Source of the DNA: Candidatus Nomurabacteria bacterium
GTDB taxonomy: Bacteria > Patescibacteriota > WWE3 > UBA101185 > UBA10185
Assembly: GCA_020631855.1 (NCBI GenBank)
Contig: JACKGU010000001.1
Coordinates: 363,118 to 427,117, forward strand
Reading direction: 5' to 3'
DNA length: 64,000 nt
The stretch's first letter is position 1. Each line of letters starts with the position of its first letter. Below, piece by piece: positions 11,426 to 43,541 of the stretch. A program made the position numbers and the translations under genes. The notes under the pieces are model-generated. The model had not been told where the DNA came from and did not search any database. It worked only from the letters and a program-made list of their open reading frames with translations.

Positions 11426-11806
11426 TTAATCTTTTTTGTCATATGATTGTAATGCGACCTGCAGGGCATCAAGTATCAAAGTCGCACATTTAACCCTACT
11501 GGTAGTTAAATCTATCGACAATAAATCCAGTATATCATTCTTAGTAAAGCTTCGAATCTCAGATATCGACCTTCCTATTAAAAAATCCAGTACTAAAGAA
11601 GCGGCTATAATACTAACCGCGCAGGAGTCTCCGGTAAAACCGGCGTCTATAAGCTTGCCCTCTGCAAATTGTAATTCGAGATCAAGACTATCTCCGCACA
11701 TTTCATTACGAACACTTGTACTTACGGTAGGGCTTTTTATCTTTGCCCTGTGCATAGGATTTTTATAAATCTCTAATAAATCTTCTCTGGTGTATATGTC
11801 TGCCAT
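11426..11806 (-). CDS. sufU: Fe-S cluster assembly scaffold SufU (NifU-like)
   Basis: MCGDSL, GDSCAVS and a C-terminal Cys provide the three conserved cysteines of SufU/IscU. Confidence 0.7.
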   Translation of the reverse strand: MADIYTREDLLEIYKNPMHRAKIKSPTVSTSVRNEMCGDSLDLELQFAEGKLIDAGFTGDSCAVSIIAASLVLDFLIGRSISEIRSFTKNDILDLLSIDLTTSRVKCATLILDALQVALQSYDKKD

Positions 11807-11840
11807 AGTTTATATGAATTTAAACAGTAAAATTAAGTAA

Positions 11841-13070
11841 CTAAGCTCCCCTAAGTAATTTTATAGCTTTTAATATGGCGTCGCACAGCGCGTCAATGTC
11901 TTCCTTTGTTGTATATATTCCAAAGCTTGCTCTTATTGTTGAATTTACCTGAAGCTTATCGTGCAAAGGCATGGTGCAGTGCTGGCCGGATCTTACCGCT
12001 ATACCCTCCGCATTTAACACCGCCGCAACATCGTGAGAATGTAAACCTTCAAGAGAGAAAGAAACCAGGGCCCCGCGCTCAGCTGCTACTTTCGGACCAT
12101 ATATGAACATGCCGTCAATCGAACTCAGCCTATCAATAGCGTACCCGGTAATCTCTTCACCATGCGAAACAATAGAATCCATACCAATAGAATTGATGAA
12201 ATCTACAGCAATACCTAAACCATAGGCACCGGCAACATTTGGGGTTCCAGCTTCATATTTTTCGGGAGAGGGGGCCCAAGTAGAAGAGTTCAAACTTACT
12301 GTTCTTATCATGCCGCCGCCAAATTCAAACGGAGGTATTAAATCGTGCAACGACTTCTTTATATAAAGAGCCCCCACTCCCATGGGACCATACATTTTGT
12401 GAGCAGAAAAACTATAAAAATCGCACCCTAAAGAAACGACATCTACAGGTATGTGCCCCACTGCCTGGGCACCGTCGACACTAATTACCGCCCCTCTAGA
12501 GTGTGCCAACTTCGCAAGTTGTTTAATTGGATAAATATTGCCAAGAACATTTGATACATGAGCGAGAGAGATAATTTTTACTCCCGGAGTAAAATATTTT
12601 TCAACCTTTTTTAAATCAAGCGAGCCATCTAATTCAAGGGGTAAAAAAATTAATTTAAGTTTTAGGATATTTGCTATCTCCTGCCATGGAACAAAATTGC
12701 TATGGTGTTCGGAATCCAACAGCAAAATGGAATCTCCCTCCTTGAGTGCTGAAACCGCATAGCTCATCGCAACTCTATTTAGACCTTCGGTAGCTCCTTT
12801 AGTAAAAATAACTTCTGTGGAAGATTCTGCATTCAAAAATTTTTGAACCTTTATTCTTGCTTGCTCGTATAAGTCGGTAGACTCATCTGATAAAAAATGC
12901 ACACCTCTGTGAACATTCGCATTGTGTAGAGAGTAATACTCAGTTTGAGAATCAATAACTGAGTAGGGTTTTTGACTTGTTGCTGCAGTATCCAGATAAA
13001 CTAAAGGCTTACCGTTGTAGATTCTTTTAAAAATAGGAAAATCATTTTTGACGGTGTTTATATCTTTCAC
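11841..13070 (-). CDS. sufS: cysteine desulfurase SufS (class V aminotransferase)
   Basis: PLP lysine context SAHKMYGPMGVGALY, active-site Cys in RSGQHC, 409 aa. Confidence 0.85.
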   Translation of the reverse strand: MKDINTVKNDFPIFKRIYNGKPLVYLDTAATSQKPYSVIDSQTEYYSLHNANVHRGVHFLSDESTDLYEQARIKVQKFLNAESSTEVIFTKGATEGLNRVAMSYAVSALKEGDSILLLDSEHHSNFVPWQEIANILKLKLIFLPLELDGSLDLKKVEKYFTPGVKIISLAHVSNVLGNIYPIKQLAKLAHSRGAVISVDGAQAVGHIPVDVVSLGCDFYSFSAHKMYGPMGVGALYIKKSLHDLIPPFEFGGGMIRTVSLNSSTWAPSPEKYEAGTPNVAGAYGLGIAVDFINSIGMDSIVSHGEEITGYAIDRLSSIDGMFIYGPKVAAERGALVSFSLEGLHSHDVAAVLNAEGIAVRSGQHCTMPLHDKLQVNSTIRASFGIYTTKEDIDALCDAILKAIKLLRGA

Positions 13071-16203: not shown

Positions 16204-16348
16204 AGCCGGTGGGTTTTACGCAGCAATCAAACACCACCGGTCTACGCAGGTGGTTTATTGTAATTTATTTGAATTGCAAAGCCCAACAGGTTAGATGACG
16301 ATGTCTACTAGCTTACGCAAGCAGTTCAAGTAACGAAATTATAAAAAA
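16204..16348 (-). repeat. copy C of a 120-nt intergenic repeat family (inverted relative to copies A/B)
   Basis: The reverse complement aligns at about 75% with 26808-26930 and 37944-38180. Shared blocks: TTTATAATTTCGTTACT, AAGCTAGTAGA, GTTGGGCTTTGCAA, AAACCACCTGCGTA..GGTGG. Confidence 0.6.
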
Positions 16349-21634: not shown

Positions 21635-21709
21635 TCCCCTGTAGCTCAATGGTAGAGCGCCCGGCTGTTAACCGGTAGGTTGGTGGTTCGAGTCCACCCG
21701 GGGGAGCCA
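21635..21709 (+). tRNA. tRNA-Asn (anticodon GUU), CCA encoded
   Basis: U1-A72 acceptor (UCCCCUG/CGGGGGA), D-arm GCUC-AAUGGUA-GAGC, anticodon loop CUGUUAA, T-loop UUCGAGU, and a G discriminator followed by CCA. Confidence 0.8.
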
Positions 21710-22945
21710 AGTAGAATCAGTAGGCTCAGAAACACCATATTTAGCTGTGACAGCAACTAAATCCACTGGTTCTAACCGTCTATTTTTCACATATTCAGGA
21801 TTTTTACCCTCCTTGAATATCAAGAAGGGTTTTTCCAAGTCAATACACAGTTTTCTGTTATTAAGCATGAGGTTCTGACCAAGTAAAGATAAGATTTCTC
21901 TTTTAACAGTAAGTCCGCCATTTTCAAATCTCTCACGAACACTTGTAGCAAAGTTGAATACATCTTCAATCTTTTTGAGATATGCCTCTCTATTTTGTTC
22001 ATCTGCACTTAGTTCATCTTTAAGCTCGTCTCGTTTAGCTTTTACTTCAACTTTAATGTCTAGGTACTCTTCGCTAGAAATCTCATTATTCATACGCATG
22101 GTCAACAAATCTGCCAACTGCTTCTCTAGTCTTTTATATTCTTTTTGTTTTGATTCCAAGATTTGAAGAGAAGTTTCAGATTCGGTTTTACTCTTTTCAG
22201 TGAGGTATTTAACCGCCCAATCACGAAACTCAATTGGTATTTCGATTGATGACACCAACTCTATTATCTGCTCTTCTAAATCTAATAATGTTATAGATTT
22301 TTGCTTGCATTTAACGTGGGGTTTTCTTTTGGAACAATGATAGTAATCATATATGCCTATATTGCCCGTTTTAGGATAGTGCTTTTCCTTATGTGTTGCC
22401 GTTATAGCACACCCACATTCAGCACAATGTATCAGACCCGTATAAAGATGTACGTGTGTCTTTGGTTTTCGTTTAAGCTTTCTGCTCAGGATTTCTTGCA
22501 CCGAGTTAAATTCCTTTTTGGTCACCATTTTGGGGTGTTCACCTTTCCGTAACTGACCCTTATACCTAAAGTAACCATAATAAAAGGGGTTACTGAAAAT
22601 GTCATATAATCCTGATTTAGATATAGGTTTGCCACCAGATTTTTTTCTCTTAATAGAGCGGTAATTCCATTGGTTATTAGCAATTTCAAGTATTTCAGGA
22701 ACTGTATATGCTCCTGTAAGCATCAAATCCCACATTTTCCTTACCAAATCGAAGCGTTCTTGGTCTTTAATGATGGTGTTTTTACCTTTTTCCTTATACA
22801 TTGTGTTTAGATAACCCGCAGGAGCAACAGAAGGTAACCACCCTTTTTCAACTTTGGATTCTAGACCATCTGCAACTCTTTCCCCTTTTACATCATTCTC
22901 AAATTTAGCATTAAGCATGTTGTATTGGAGCATTAAGATTCCCAT
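21668..22945 (-). pseudogene. 5'-truncated large serine recombinase (lacks catalytic resolvase domain); C-terminal 14 codons antisense to tRNA-Asn
   Basis: It aligns with residues from about 150 onward of the intact recombinase at 60434..62047 (GWLPSVAPAGY vs LSPTPKYGY; FSNPFYYGYF vs FRDPFYYGVL). Zn-ribbon cysteines CAECGC...HC and a coiled coil are present. The resolvase domain and its catalytic serine (conserved RSxE/DQ context) are absent. Confidence 0.65.
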
Positions 22946-26807: not shown

Positions 26808-26930
26808 TTTTATAATTTCGTTACTAAAACTACTTACATAAGCTAGTAGATGTGGTTTACCCAACATGTTGGGCTTTGCAACGCAAAGAAGGTACGGCAA
26901 ACCACTTGCGTAAGCTGGCAGTGTTTAATA
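26808..26930 (+). repeat. copy A of 120-nt intergenic repeat family
   Basis: TTTATAATTTCGTTACT...AAGCTAGTAGATG...CCCAACATGTTGGG (perfect 14-bp palindrome)...GCAAACCACTTGCGTAAGCTGG. It sits between the stop of 26942..28624 and the start of 25408..26775. Confidence 0.6.
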
Positions 26931-35331: not shown

Positions 35332-37266
35332 TTATTTTGTACCAACCAAATAAACAGCCCTCCACGGCTGGTACCTGGTTACAAAAGTGTCTTCAATTAT
35401 TTTTTTATCATCTTTATATACTATTCTGTTAAAACTGGCCGTTGCTCCCCAAGCAGCAAAATCTACCTGTTTAACTACACCCTTCGGCAAAGTTGGGTCG
35501 TCTTGATATAACGCAGGGGGAGGAGGAGATTGATTGGAAACAACTGGTTCCGAAATTTCAACTTTCCGACCGTCGGGAGTTCCATATAATTTAAAAGTTA
35601 AGGAATATTCGACTTCGTTGGGAACTGCTTCTATTAAAATAAAGTTTGGCGTATCATTTTTAAATTCAAAATCAAGCGATGGCTGATATATTGAGGCGTC
35701 AACTCCAACGGGCGATTCAATTTCGTAGTAACCGACACGATAGGCATGGGGGTGCCTAGTAACAATGGGTAAGCCCGAATTTAGCGCTGCGCGAAACAAA
35801 GTTGTGGATGTTTGGCACACTCCCCCACCGTCTCCCAAAACAGTACGACCGTTAGATATAACATAGGCCGTAGCATATCCGGTAGAACTACTTATTTTCC
35901 CAACCGAAGTATTAAATGAATAAATCTCTCCGGGCGGTACAAGAACTCCGTCGGTTCTCTTGGCCGCCAAAAGCAAATTATGAATTCGGGAAGGGGCTGA
36001 TCCGGTATATTTGGAAGTTCCCTCGCCAATAAGTTTGTAGATGCCGTACTTTGAGGGATCTGCCGCACCTTCTATTTTATTAAAGGTCAAAACAACAGAA
36101 GTAGGTTTTTTCTCTTCTAGACCAATATCATCAACAGGAGTTTCCCATAACAACGCGTCTTTTAAGTTTCTCTCGAATGATTTTTTTTCAAGTTCGTAGC
36201 CGGGCTCAACGAACTCAAACTCTGTTACGATATCGTTTGAGATAGCGGTTATTTTCCCTCGCGGTAATGTATTTACCTCCTGAGCAATAGCCGAGGTGTA
36301 GGCTTCGAACTGAGGTTTATTTATGACCAGGCTGTACGAATCGTCAACTTTGGAAACTTCTACCAAACTAAGCTTTTCTAAATCCGATAAAATAATAGGC
36401 TCAAAATTTGGAAAATTTGAAACACTTTCACTCCCTAACTTGCTATTACCGTTTTTCGACTCGGGATCCTTCTCGTCATCTTTGGTGACTTTTATTTTTT
36501 CTTGCGTTTCGCCCTCGCTATTGTTGCTTGCAGGTACTGCTTGAGGAACTAAAGTTATTTCATTTTTTAAAAGGGCTTTTATTTTTGGCTCAAACAATTT
36601 AAGTGCGACGGTGTTAACCTTAGGATACACTTTTTCTACTAATAAAATTTTTTGAGTAAAATCAAAATTATTTAGTGACCACAAAGACTGATCATATAAA
36701 TTTTGGTGGTCTACCTTAAAGCCAGCGGAAGATTCTACAAGAGACAAACGGCCTTCTTCATCAAGGCTAAAACGGGCGTCTTTTGCCTGCACATCAAGAG
36801 TTCCAACTATTACTGCGAAAAAGTTGTTTAAAGCCTTTTCATCATGAGTTAAAGAGGCAGGTACAGTTAACTTTTTACCTATTAGGCCGGCAATTTTGTC
36901 TTTGGTGTCTATGTAAAGATTTCCGGTGCGCCCAACTTGCAAAGCTCGTTGGACAGATTGTGACGGATTGTAAGTAATATCTAAATCAGACAAAGAGGTT
37001 GTGTAAACATTATCTTCAAAAACAAAAGATAGCTCAGAAGGCAAAGAACTTATTGTATCCGCGAGTTTTTTCTCGGCATCACCATAAGTTAAACCCCCTA
37101 CATCAACAACACCAACATATACTCCAGGAATAATTTTGCGACCAAAAAAAACATGGTAGGCTGCAAAAAATGCAAGCAAAGCGCAAAGTAAATAAAAAGC
37201 TACCAAGCCAAGTCTAAGCCGACTAAACATTTTTGAACTTAGTAATAAAAATTTGCGAAATAGCAT
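35332..37266 (-). CDS. VanW-family protein with N-terminal TM anchor
   Basis: C-terminal GGGVCQTSTTLFRAALNSGLPIVTRHPHAYRVGYY matches the VanW domain signature. Confidence 0.65.
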   Translation of the reverse strand: MLFRKFLLLSSKMFSRLRLGLVAFYLLCALLAFFAAYHVFFGRKIIPGVYVGVVDVGGLTYGDAEKKLADTISSLPSELSFVFEDNVYTTSLSDLDITYNPSQSVQRALQVGRTGNLYIDTKDKIAGLIGKKLTVPASLTHDEKALNNFFAVIVGTLDVQAKDARFSLDEEGRLSLVESSAGFKVDHQNLYDQSLWSLNNFDFTQKILLVEKVYPKVNTVALKLFEPKIKALLKNEITLVPQAVPASNNSEGETQEKIKVTKDDEKDPESKNGNSKLGSESVSNFPNFEPIILSDLEKLSLVEVSKVDDSYSLVINKPQFEAYTSAIAQEVNTLPRGKITAISNDIVTEFEFVEPGYELEKKSFERNLKDALLWETPVDDIGLEEKKPTSVVLTFNKIEGAADPSKYGIYKLIGEGTSKYTGSAPSRIHNLLLAAKRTDGVLVPPGEIYSFNTSVGKISSSTGYATAYVISNGRTVLGDGGGVCQTSTTLFRAALNSGLPIVTRHPHAYRVGYYEIESPVGVDASIYQPSLDFEFKNDTPNFILIEAVPNEVEYSLTFKLYGTPDGRKVEISEPVVSNQSPPPPALYQDDPTLPKGVVKQVDFAAWGATASFNRIVYKDDKKIIEDTFVTRYQPWRAVYLVGTK

Positions 37267-37293: not shown

Positions 37294-37884
37294 CTAGGAC
37301 TTATCATTCTTTGCAGCCCCTGCATTATTCTTGGGCTTAGGCTCAACCCCTTTTGGAATAAAAGGAATACGAGGCTTTCTAATTATGTATTTCTTTGGAT
37401 CCGCACACATATCAATGACATCGTCAGCCTCGTCAAACAACTTGGTTGAACCGGTTTTGCTAAACGCTACAACCTCTGTTCGAACGCCTTGACTTTTTGC
37501 ATACTGCAACAAGTGAATGTAGTCACCATCGCCTGATATCAAAACCATAACATCTATTTTTGGAAGCATTCTAACAACATCCATGCATAGACCAACGTCC
37601 CAGTCACCTTTTTTTGAACCATCTATAAAAATTTGGAGCTCCTTTGCCTTAACCTCATACCCGCGCTGGGTAAGAGCATCAAAAAACTCCTTTTCTAAAC
37701 CAACATCTGCTTTGATAACATAAGCAAAAGCCCTAACTAAACGGCGGTTTCCCACAGACTCAGTTAAAATTCGGCCAAAGTCTACCTTTCCCGAATATAG
37801 GTTTTTAGCGGAGTAATACATATTTTGTACGTCAGCAAAGATCGCAACTCTCTGTTCCGGATGTTTTGTTGTGTCAGCATTCAT
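37294..37884 (-). CDS. NYN-domain (LabA-like) protein
   Basis: VAIFADVQNMYY, DVGLCMDV and VLISGDGDYIHLL motifs of the NYN/LabA family. Confidence 0.65.
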   Translation of the reverse strand: MNADTTKHPEQRVAIFADVQNMYYSAKNLYSGKVDFGRILTESVGNRRLVRAFAYVIKADVGLEKEFFDALTQRGYEVKAKELQIFIDGSKKGDWDVGLCMDVVRMLPKIDVMVLISGDGDYIHLLQYAKSQGVRTEVVAFSKTGSTKLFDEADDVIDMCADPKKYIIRKPRIPFIPKGVEPKPKNNAGAAKNDKS

Positions 37885-37943: not shown

Positions 37944-38180
37944 TTATAATTTCGTTACTTAAACCTACTTACCCGAGCTAGTAGATGTAGTTTACCCAAC
38001 ATGTTGAGCTCTGCAAGGCAAAGAAATTACAGCAAACCACCTGCGTAAGCTGGTGATAGTTGATAATTTCGTTACTTAAACCTACTTACCCGAGCTAGTA
38101 GATGTAATTTACCCAACATGTTGAGCTCTGCAAGGCAAAGAAATTACAGTAAGCCACCTGCGTAAGCTGGTGGTAGTTGA
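37944..38180 (+). repeat. two tandem copies (period about 118 bp) of the 120-nt intergenic repeat family (copies B1, B2)
   Basis: 37944-38062 and 38064-38180 are about 95% identical to each other and about 80% identical to copy A. Confidence 0.7.
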
Positions 38181-38351
38181 TAGCCATATGCAAGGATACG
38201 TATTACAATACAACTGCTACTGTTTGAAACAAACGACGATCTGCCTACATAAAGACAGCTTGCAACTTCCCAACTACGGGCCGGTCAGTGTTAAAAGTAG
38301 TAACTAAAAAAGGTACAAAAAACCATATATAAATAGAAGGGAGGCGAAAAA

Positions 38352-38594
38352 ATGCTAAATAAAATAAAGGATCTACTTAAAATAGGAGATAAAAAATCTT
38401 GTTGCGGAGGGGCAAAAGACGATTGTTGCCAAAACCACGAGGATTCTTGTTGCGGCGGACATTGCTCGCCCGAGGACACAGAGAAAGGCTGCTGTTGCAA
38501 CGGTAACGGACAGTGCAATTGCTCTAAAGACGAATGCTGCTGCGAATGCAAAGAGGACGAAACTTGCGAATGTAAATGCCATACAATAGAATAA
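38352..38594 (+). CDS. Cys-rich small protein (19 Cys in 80 aa), metallothionein-like
   Basis: A GGGAGG RBS lies 8 nt upstream of the ATG. The sequence is SCCGG..DCCQNHEDSCCGGHCSP..GCCCNGNGQCNCSKDECCCECKEDETCECKCH. Confidence 0.55.
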   Translation: MLNKIKDLLKIGDKKSCCGGAKDDCCQNHEDSCCGGHCSPEDTEKGCCCNGNGQCNCSKDECCCECKEDETCECKCHTIE

Positions 38595-38611
38595 CTGCCC
38601 AAAAACAAAAG

Positions 38612-38640
38612 AAAAAGCACGCCGAAAAGGGCGCTTTTTG
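38612..38640 (+). terminator. weak intrinsic terminator after Cys-rich gene
   Basis: CGCC-gaaaag-GGCG stem followed by a T5 run. Confidence 0.3.
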
Positions 38641-38735
38641 GAAAGTTGATAGCCGTAGTATCTCCGGATATACGGAAAGAGAAGGTACGAAGAAGTTAAC
38701 AAACTAGCTCGCCCGCGATATAATGTCGGGCACAT

Positions 38736-38809
38736 TGGGGGATCGTCTAATGGTAGGACACTGCACTCTGGATGCAGGAATTGGGGTTCGAATCCCTGTC
38801 CCCCAGCCA
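38736..38809 (+). tRNA. tRNA-Gln (anticodon CUG), CCA encoded
   Basis: U1-A72 pair (UGGGGGA/UCCCCCA), the Gln hallmark; D-arm GUCU-AAUGGUA-GGAC; perfect anticodon stem CUGCA/UGCAG with loop CUCUGGA; T-loop UUCGAAU; ends GCCA, as in E. coli tRNA-Gln. Confidence 0.8.
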
Positions 38810-38867
38810 AGGAAAATATCCCTAAGCCTGAGAGGTTTGCGGATGTTTTTCTTTAACGGTTTAGACA

Positions 38868-42989: not shown

Positions 42990-43541
42990 TTATCTCCTTC
43001 TAGCCACTAAAATTTCACGTTCTTGGTTCATACCTGATTTAGTTCCACCTATTACTTTGTCGTGTAACAACACATCCCAGGATTTATATTTATTGACTAG
43101 ATAGTCTCCAACAAAATAGCATTTTTTATGGTTAATATTAAATTCACCTTGGTCTGTAAAACCAACGATTATATTTATTCCATCTGTTGCAGTATGTTCC
43201 TGTATCGAATCTATGAGTTTGTCTCCGGACGAAAGTTTTAAAAAATGAAAAGTAAAGAAGGAAATGATGTCATCATAAGTGTCGTTTATAATATAGTTAT
43301 TAAGATCTGCTCCTTCGGTATGTATGTTTAGATTGTTTTCATTTGCAAATATTTTTAAGTCATTAAGCGCTGCGTTATCCTTATCTATATTCATAACTTC
43401 AAACCCATTTCTTGCAAGAAAAATTGCGTTTGTTCCATCTGATCCGCCTAAATCCAAAACCTTTCCAGTCTTTAAATCAGCTAAATATTTTACCAATAGT
43501 TTATTAGGCTCCTTTGACCATCGTGAATTAATCACAGTCAT
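42990..43541 (-). CDS. class I SAM-dependent methyltransferase (TehB-like)
   Basis: Motif I VLDLGGSDGTNAIFLARNGFEV; 183 aa. Confidence 0.65.
   Translation of the reverse strand: MTVINSRWSKEPNKLLVKYLADLKTGKVLDLGGSDGTNAIFLARNGFEVMNIDKDNAALNDLKIFANENNLNIHTEGADLNNYIINDTYDDIISFFTFHFLKLSSGDKLIDSIQEHTATDGINIIVGFTDQGEFNINHKKCYFVGDYLVNKYKSWDVLLHDKVIGGTKSGMNQEREILVARRR

Follow-up and report, generated by a model that had tools for sequence, protein, structure and literature searches.

A cysteine-rich, metallothionein-like protein with a putative membrane tether encoded beside tRNA-Gln in WWE3 bacteria

What is an 80-amino-acid protein with 19 cysteines doing in a bacterium whose proteins are otherwise poor in cysteine, and is the open reading frame (ORF) that would encode it a gene at all? 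The question is raised by a 64,000-nucleotide stretch of a Candidatus Nomurabacteria genome (Patescibacteriota, WWE3; assembly GCA_020631855.1, contig JACKGU010000001.1, positions 363,118 to 427,117), which we call the window. In it, a small ORF at 38352..38594 lies between a gene for a NYN-domain protein and a tRNA-Gln gene. An earlier note, made from the letters of the window, had likened its product to metallothioneins (MTs). We propose, with slightly better than even confidence, that the protein represents a new and so far unannotated family: metal-thiolate proteins of a metallothionein-like kind, peripherally tethered to the membrane. Both the metal binding and the tethering are inferred.

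The gene and its reading frame

The gene, its signals, its two conserved neighbors and the segments of its product are arranged as follows, in window coordinates.

38352..38594, plus strand: gene for the 80-amino-acid Cys-rich protein, ATG to TAA with the stop included (read from the sequence)
38339..38344, plus strand: Shine-Dalgarno (SD) sequence GGGAGG, 7 nt 5' of the ATG (read from the sequence)
38612..38639, plus strand: weak terminator-like hairpin ending in T5 (-15.6 kcal/mol, z = -1.7)
38696..38724, plus strand: near-consensus promoter TTAACA-17-TATAAT (11/12) before tRNA-Gln (consensus scan)
38736..38809, plus strand: tRNA-Gln(CTG), conserved downstream landmark (tRNA call)
37294..37884, minus strand: NYN-domain (LabA-like) gene, conserved divergent neighbor and bait of our searches (PF01936, E = 8e-31)
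38352..38387, plus strand: residues 1-12, MLNKIKDLLKIG, amphipathic helix and proposed peripheral membrane tether (hydrophobic moment, motif conservation)
38400..38591, plus strand: residues 17-80, acidic Cys19His3 core and proposed metal-thiolate domain (composition)
38490..38522, plus strand: residues 47-57, family core motif CCCNGNGQCNC (alignment A1)

The whole product is MLNKIKDLLKIGDKKSCCGGAKDDCCQNHEDSCCGGHCSPEDTEKGCCCNGNGQCNCSKDECCCECKEDETCECKCHTIE, laid out as MLNKIKDLLKIGDKKS followed by a 64-amino-acid core. Its 19 cysteines account for 23.8% of the protein and 29.7% of the core, and are arranged, in overlapping counts, as seven CC, six CxC, two CCC and one CxxC. The remainder includes 17 Asp plus Glu, 10 Lys and no Phe, Trp or Tyr, giving a mass of 8.67 kDa and a pI of 4.8. 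The ORF, its length, its cysteine count, the GGGAGG ribosome-binding site and the weak hairpin with its T5 run are all as the earlier note had described them; its single histidine was a miscount, as the protein contains three. This density of cysteine is beyond chance. When the whole window was shuffled 20 times, the richest 64-amino-acid stop-free stretch contained 5-9 cysteines, versus 19 in the real core. Indeed, the window's proteome is Cys-poor (0.87% Cys in stop-free frames of at least 150 amino acids), and CxxC occurs, even once, in just four of its ORFs of at least 100 amino acids. Short repeats within the DNA of the core (SCCGG, 48 nt apart; K-D-[DE]-C-C and CECK, 24 nt apart) suggest that it grew through internal duplication.

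A contig from an ENA metagenome, independent of the window (L001; loci are cited by such L numbers), has the identical 80-amino-acid protein called on it and matches the window at 99.8% identity across 1166 nt with two differences. One of these is an A-to-G change at 38338, immediately 5' of the SD, which turns GAAGGGAGG into GAGGGGAGG. Downstream of the gene, a consensus terminator scan reported the hairpin on the minus strand only, and the near-consensus promoter that tRNA-Gln has of its own suggests that tRNA and ORF are separate transcription units.

Two minus-strand ORFs overlap the gene (38291..38620 and 38373..38810), of which the one of 145 amino acids passes through the tRNA-Gln gene. 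Upon comparison with the orthologs introduced below, the sense frame of the window finds its best relative at E 7e-10, collinear from Met1, whereas the antisense frames reach 1e-4 at best. The antisense frames are interrupted in L004, L011 and L105; they stay open in many other members simply as a by-product of a codon composition in which antisense stops are avoided. They thus read as composition shadows, in line with the earlier note, which had called them antisense shadows and had raised the prospect of homologs that conserve the antisense frame instead. In the homologs it is the sense frame that is conserved.

A family at a fixed locus

Direct searches found no relative of the protein. Neither the whole protein nor the core alone matched any Pfam or NCBIfam model at E <= 10, so that the HMMER check for metallothionein families proposed earlier came back empty, and PDB sequences likewise gave zero matches at E <= 10. 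Zero matches were also returned by a word-indexed search of 5.8 billion proteins, by an exhaustive phmmer search of 1.84 billion protein representatives, and by tblastn against plasmid and phage records. At the same database size as the phmmer search, the protein itself scores 3e-44, and a copy that keeps its cysteines but is mutated at 70% of the remaining residues scores 1e-11. A composition-filter artifact thus does not account for the empty result, and the libraries evidently do not include the protein itself; because the control detects even the mutated copy, no reasonably close relative appears to be gene-called there. Literature searches matched neither metallothionein with candidate phyla radiation (CPR) nor Patescibacteria with cysteine-rich small proteins.

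Synteny found the family where these exhaustive searches were empty, which is itself a lesson in method. With the NYN protein as bait, we fetched 80 loci from GTDB, one genome per species, and 80 from metagenomes, together about 160 from WWE3 and other Patescibacteria. The best NYN matches come from metagenome-assembled genomes of candidate division WWE3 and Patescibacteria. Across the 80 GTDB species-representative loci, NYN identity to the window is 53-78%; given this maximum of 78%, the window would come from a WWE3 bacterium with no close sequenced relative. WWE3 loci repeat the gene order of the window, with tRNA-Gln(CTG) upstream of NYN on the opposite strand. The spacer between the two ranges from 64 to 1970 bp: spacers of about 300-500 bp typically hold one small ORF on the tRNA's strand, and spacers below about 130 bp, found in some species, hold none. 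The window's ORF occupies just this position, between divergent NYN and tRNA-Gln(CTG) and on the tRNA's strand, and these two are the only neighbors of the small ORF that are conserved in other genomes. The locus appears to be ancestral in WWE3, with the ORF itself present or absent and its content hypervariable. The ancestral order argues against the view that the gene is cargo of a recombination hotspot, as the earlier note had called the site; its placement of the gene between tandem repeats and tRNA-Gln holds, with a repeat unit of 117 nt rather than 120.

Selection on the sense frame can be read from two ortholog pairs. L011 and L162 share 27 identical codons and differ at 8 synonymous and 5 non-synonymous ones, and L019 and L105 have 28 identical, 16 synonymous and 16 non-synonymous codons; all indels in both pairs are in frame. 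This excess of synonymous change, together with indels that are exclusively in frame, indicates that the family is under purifying selection. AGGAGG, GGGAGG or AGGGGG stands at SD distance in the orthologs L010, L013, L019, L031, L034 and L105. Judged from its position and from these comparisons, ORF 38352..38594 is a genuine coding gene at a conserved site.

A second group of orthologs, which begin MGLFD, mostly has no SD. In the 45 nt upstream of the small ORF (compared in L003, L022, L036, L042, L043, L102, L117, L130, L141, L142, L151 and L152), most have a conserved cTTGACAaca-17-TAT(C/G)AT, with 7 nt between the end of its -10 box and the ATG. Such a layout suggests that their mRNAs are leaderless. 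L003 and L151 deviate in the -35 region, and L003 has AGGGGG at SD distance. Unlike these orthologs, the window gene uses its GGGAGG SD.

Family members are built from a short amphipathic helix at one terminus (MLxKIKxLL or MGLFDxLKxLFG) and a low-complexity acidic tail with 0-21 cysteines. The window protein belongs to the M-L-x-K-[IL]-K-x-[ML]-L type (alignment A1), which recurs as MLDKLKAMLGM (L010), MLTKLKTMLKS (L004), MNTLISKIKTMLNIG (L011), MVSKVIEKLKKLL (L009), MFDNLKKMLGM (L002) and MISELIKKLKSVIKK (L017); the second type includes MGLFDSLKNLF, MGLLDSVLKLFGGGG, MSLFDKLFGK and similar starts. In the window protein, the hydrophobic moment of residues 1-12 is 0.59-0.64 per residue, and a helical wheel places M1, L2, I5, L8, L9 and I11 on one face and Lys and Asp on the opposite one. 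The N-terminal motif is kept in L002, L004, L009, L010, L011, L017, L029 and L162. In L013 (…GGLMGMLKKLFRS) and L021 (…GFLAKLKKMLGM) the helix is C-terminal instead, which suggests that it works independently of its position. The window protein has no transmembrane (TM) segment (KD19 maximum -0.22) and no Sec-signal-like hydrophobic stretch, and should therefore be cytoplasmic.

The cysteines of the family are likewise ordered. Members from twelve loci (L002, L004, L009, L010, L011, L013, L014, L017, L019, L029, L031 and L034) contain 4-21 cysteines, and their alignment to the window protein starts at Met1 and extends across the Cys motif; L031 has 21 cysteines in 79 amino acids after refinement of its start, and L034 has 18 in 105. 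Cys-bearing members, the window protein included, share the core C-x-C-[GN]-G-x-C-x-C(-x-H), of which C47, C49, C55 and C57 are invariant in alignment A1. Its variants include CCCNGNCACNH (L009), CECGGNCGCGH (L011), CHCGGGCGC (L004), CACGGNCDCH (L017), CVCGGNCGCH (L029) and CGCGGNCGCNHN (L031). A regular expression for this core retrieved 16 distinct ORFs from 2.27 million six-frame residues: 12 were family ORFs at other loci and 4 were evident junk frames. One genome (L026) encodes the Cys module about 5 kb from its NYN gene, as the C-terminal tail of a 224-amino-acid protein (11806-12480, plus strand) with two predicted TM segments and a weak DUF5671 match. This tail, CVCGGNCGCNNHEVEFCGDSCECKGTCMCGLCDKTECKCECHKG, runs CVCGGNCGCNNH…CKCECHKG, to be compared with CECKCHTIE at the end of the window protein. 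Three proteins (L013 5517-5888, L031 1029-1274 and L034 1542-1859, minus strand) begin MC[DS]TCGC, with cysteines at 2, 5 and 7, and several relatives are His-rich, such as L019 with 10 His. The Cys/His-rich proteins of L019 (4391-4618) and L105 (2238-2420), on the minus strand, also share the acidic end DLDDDSDLGD[VI]DLDTDM. Profile searches with the family alignments A1 and A2 found just six proteins, all from Patescibacteria and either unnamed or called 'hypothetical protein'. The protein belongs to no described family, and neither Pfam nor NCBIfam holds a model for its own.

Proposed function, alternatives and surroundings

We picture the protein as follows. The helix of residues 1-12 would anchor the protein by lying against the membrane on its cytoplasmic side, leaving the acidic tail (residues 17-80) in the cytoplasm with its cysteines as reduced thiolates. 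These thiolates may coordinate soft metals within metal-thiolate clusters like those of metallothioneins; the candidates are Zn, Cu(I) and Cd, and perhaps Ni or Fe. Mammalian MT holds 7 divalent ions with 20 cysteines; by this analogy, the window protein could take up some 6-7 divalent ions, or a larger number of Cu(I). The protein could then buffer, store or detoxify metal beside the membrane. That the helix is a membrane-placing module fits its occurrence at either end of the protein, the acidic disordered tail that follows it, and its replacement by TM helices in L026. If the family, whose members now pass as 'hypothetical' or are not called at all, binds metal, it would be a new MT-like one, unusual in its membrane anchor, and a possible entry point to metal handling in CPR organisms with reduced genomes and Cys-poor proteomes. 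The series from 0 to 21 cysteines at one locus could also show how metal-binding low-complexity proteins arise.

As a tentative extension, to which we give only a modest chance, the family could be a 'swap-tail' metal buffer, with a conserved amphipathic anchor and a fast-evolving tail that is retuned between polycarboxylate forms for hard cations, His-rich forms, and polythiolate forms for soft metals. Were this so, the family would constitute a membrane-tethered, metallothionein-like class specific to ultra-small CPR bacteria, in which metal handling is adapted to habitat and perhaps replaces canonical metal-homeostasis systems that may be absent; the window protein, with its 19 cysteines, would be among the most extreme thiolate forms.

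Several points weigh against a tethered metal-thiolate protein. No homology to any characterized metal-binding protein was found in Pfam, NCBIfam or PDB, and neither a metal transporter nor a metal-sensing regulator in the Pfam-annotated part of the window (about 20-59 kb). The positional orthologs in L003, L036, L042, L043, L102, L141 and L152 contain no cysteine and have an acidic Pro/Glu/Ala tail; since so many are Cys-free, the locus may originally have served some purpose other than binding metal by thiolates, and the proposed orthology of Cys-rich and acidic forms is argued only from position and the short helix motif. The sole close relative of the window gene is the 99.8% identical contig, so that selection was read from the ortholog pairs instead. 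Finally, a single-sequence AlphaFold model has a low-confidence pLDDT of 56.7, too low for a fold search, and shows no helix across residues 1-21.

Other explanations of the cysteines have to be weighed against these points. The protein could be a cytoplasmic thiol-redox buffer or a small Fe-S or sulfur-carrier protein, with cysteines that quench oxidants or hold persulfide or Fe-S clusters. Composition alone cannot separate this from metal storage, a protein of 24% Cys would, if abundant, hold a large share of the thiols of a cell at 0.87%, and the PF12669 proteins, which are small, membrane-anchored and Cys-rich, are linked to iron (PMC8749426). We nevertheless consider this unlikely: the spacings are mostly CC, CCC and CxC with one CxxC and no CxxCxxC ferredoxin pattern, the His-rich stretches and HypB-like MCxTCGC starts of the relatives are typical of Ni/Zn binding, and no Fe-S assembly genes are adjacent in the annotated part. 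It is also conceivable, though quite unlikely, that the anchor and the disordered polyanionic tail are the real function, as a membrane regulator or spacer or for hard cations, and that the cysteines are lineage-specific drift. Many positional orthologs do combine the helix with an acidic tail of 0-3 cysteines, tail length and composition vary widely among species whose NYN proteins are 60-78% identical, and the internal short repeats suggest slippage-driven growth. Yet C-x-C-[GN]-G-x-C-x-C is conserved in many species, and an unrelated TM protein carries it as well; both ortholog pairs, L011/L162 and L019/L105, retain their Cys positions and show an excess of synonymous change; and drift would not be expected to yield 19 cysteines in so Cys-poor a proteome.

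Two further alternatives concern what the ORF encodes. That it is no gene, being a chance or relic frame in the spacer between NYN and tRNA-Gln or the shadow of a minus-strand product, is very improbable. Direct searches without homologs, long open antisense frames and a weak terminator would be consistent with it; the sense frame, however, is the one that has the SD, the conserved motifs and the syntenic orthologs, the ortholog pairs are under apparent purifying selection, and the antisense frames are less similar, broken in three loci and, for the 145-amino-acid ORF, drawn across a tRNA gene. The idea that the protein is the precursor of a ribosomally synthesized and post-translationally modified peptide (RiPP), with MLNKIKDLLKIGDKKS as its leader, a Cys-rich core and a maturase encoded elsewhere, was taken up from the earlier note and seems to us scarcely credible. 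Its layout is superficially that of leader plus core, and our inspection covered 64 kb of the genome. Within the window, the radical-SAM motif CxxxCxxC occurs in no ORF of at least 100 amino acids, and no domain of a maturase, leader peptidase or RiPP exporter was found in the annotated part, which bears out the earlier remark that no maturase gene lies nearby. NYN and tRNA-Gln are the only neighbors kept elsewhere. The supposed leader, MLNKIKDLLKIG, reads rather as the conserved amphipathic helix, which is likewise present on relatives that have no cysteine and is C-terminal in two; these 12 residues are conserved and there is no GG-type cleavage motif in register. A strongly acidic core of 64 amino acids is, moreover, atypical for a RiPP.

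Three candidates were dropped. A mobile-element cargo gene at a tRNA hotspot disagrees with the gene order conserved across WWE3. A Cys-codon attenuation leader for the downstream tRNA disagrees with the ORF's own terminator-like hairpin, the tRNA's own promoter and the Cys-free orthologs, and no connection between tRNA-Gln and the supply of cysteine is evident. Were it a secreted, disulfide-rich peptide, a hydrophobic signal sequence would be expected, and the protein has none.

The wider surroundings contain the following features.

35332-37266, minus strand: gene for a VanW-like protein (Pfam annotation)
37946..38182, plus strand: tandem pair of a 117-nt element, between NYN and the small ORF (2.0 copies, 96% identity)
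26812-26918, plus strand: dispersed intergenic copy of the 117-nt element (88%)
16235-16342, minus strand: dispersed intergenic copy of the 117-nt element (77%)
21668-22945, minus strand: large serine recombinase ORF (Recombinase + Zn_ribbon_recom) that abuts and overlaps tRNA-Asn (21635-21709)
42990-43541, minus strand: TehB-like SAM methyltransferase (tellurite-resistance family, E = 4.5e-23)

Every copy of the 117-nt element opens with TTATAATTTCGTTACT and closes with a conserved hairpin, CCACCTGCGTAAGCTGGTGG, in which a compensatory change is seen at one base pair. The element has no Rfam match (a scan of the window returned tRNAs only) and may represent a family of small RNAs or an element of the miniature mobile or REP-like kind; its tandem copies are probably not part of the function of the 80-amino-acid gene. 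The overlap of the serine recombinase with tRNA-Asn may mark the edge of an integrated element. Beyond tRNA-Gln follow a 157-amino-acid protein without a Pfam match and a peptidase S51. The TehB-like gene, 4.4 kb downstream, is the only gene with a metalloid link in the annotated part.

Comparison with known systems

The metal-thiolate protein that we propose recalls the FeoB-associated proteins (PF12669), small proteins with a membrane anchor and a Cys-rich cytoplasmic tail that are linked to iron and thought to bind metal (PMC8749426). The concept of an anchor with a short Cys-rich tail is the same, and the relative in L026 even has true TM helices. The window protein, by contrast, does not match the PF12669 HMM at E <= 10, has an amphipathic rather than a TM helix, and contains many more cysteines at other spacings; feoB was not found in the annotated part of the window. 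A second likeness concerns the N-terminus of E. coli HypB, where CxxCGC, with cysteines at 2, 5 and 7, forms a Ni(II) site of picomolar affinity (PMC12284835). The MC[DS]TCGC starts of L013, L031 and L034 place their cysteines identically, in a disordered context rich in metal ligands. The window protein differs in that its helix occupies the N-terminus in place of CxxCGC, and no GTPase domain is attached; hydrogenase maturation genes were not seen nearby.

As for the anchor, SepF, FtsY, MinD and FtsA are targeted to the membrane by terminal amphipathic helices. Like these, the proposed tether is a helix of roughly 11-12 residues that is hydrophobic on one face and flanked by Lys, sits at the extreme terminus and is followed by an acidic disordered linker. 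Its hydrophobic moment equals or exceeds those of the examples compared. What it carries is a Cys-rich tail, whereas the helices of the known proteins carry a folded domain, and no homology is implied.

The closest parallel remains with the metallothioneins, which form a functional and compositional class, not a single homologous family; few bacterial families have been described (BmtA/SmtA, MymT and the Pseudomonas MTs). By the sequence-level criteria of this class, the protein qualifies with its 8.67 kDa (below about 10 kDa), 23.8% Cys (within about 15-33%) in CC, CxC and CxxC arrangements, and absence of aromatic residues. Like BmtA/SmtA (PF02069), MymT and the Pseudomonas MTs, it is small, carries 24-30% Cys as CC, CxC and CCC, has few His, is acidic and predicted to be cytoplasmic, and contains modular internal repeats. 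The label metallothionein-like therefore stands for composition, and fails as membership of a described family: the protein is unrelated in sequence to any MT family of Pfam or NCBIfam, does not match the PF02069 HMM, and its C-x-C-[GN]-G-x-C-x-C(-x-H) motif is the WWE3 family's own. It is also far denser in cysteine, as the earlier note had stated, with 19 in 80 amino acids versus 9 in 56 for SmtA. To our knowledge, known MTs lack an N-terminal amphipathic helix such as that of the window protein. What appears to be new is thus the combination of a metallothionein-like family with an amphipathic anchor, a hypervariable tail and a fixed locus.

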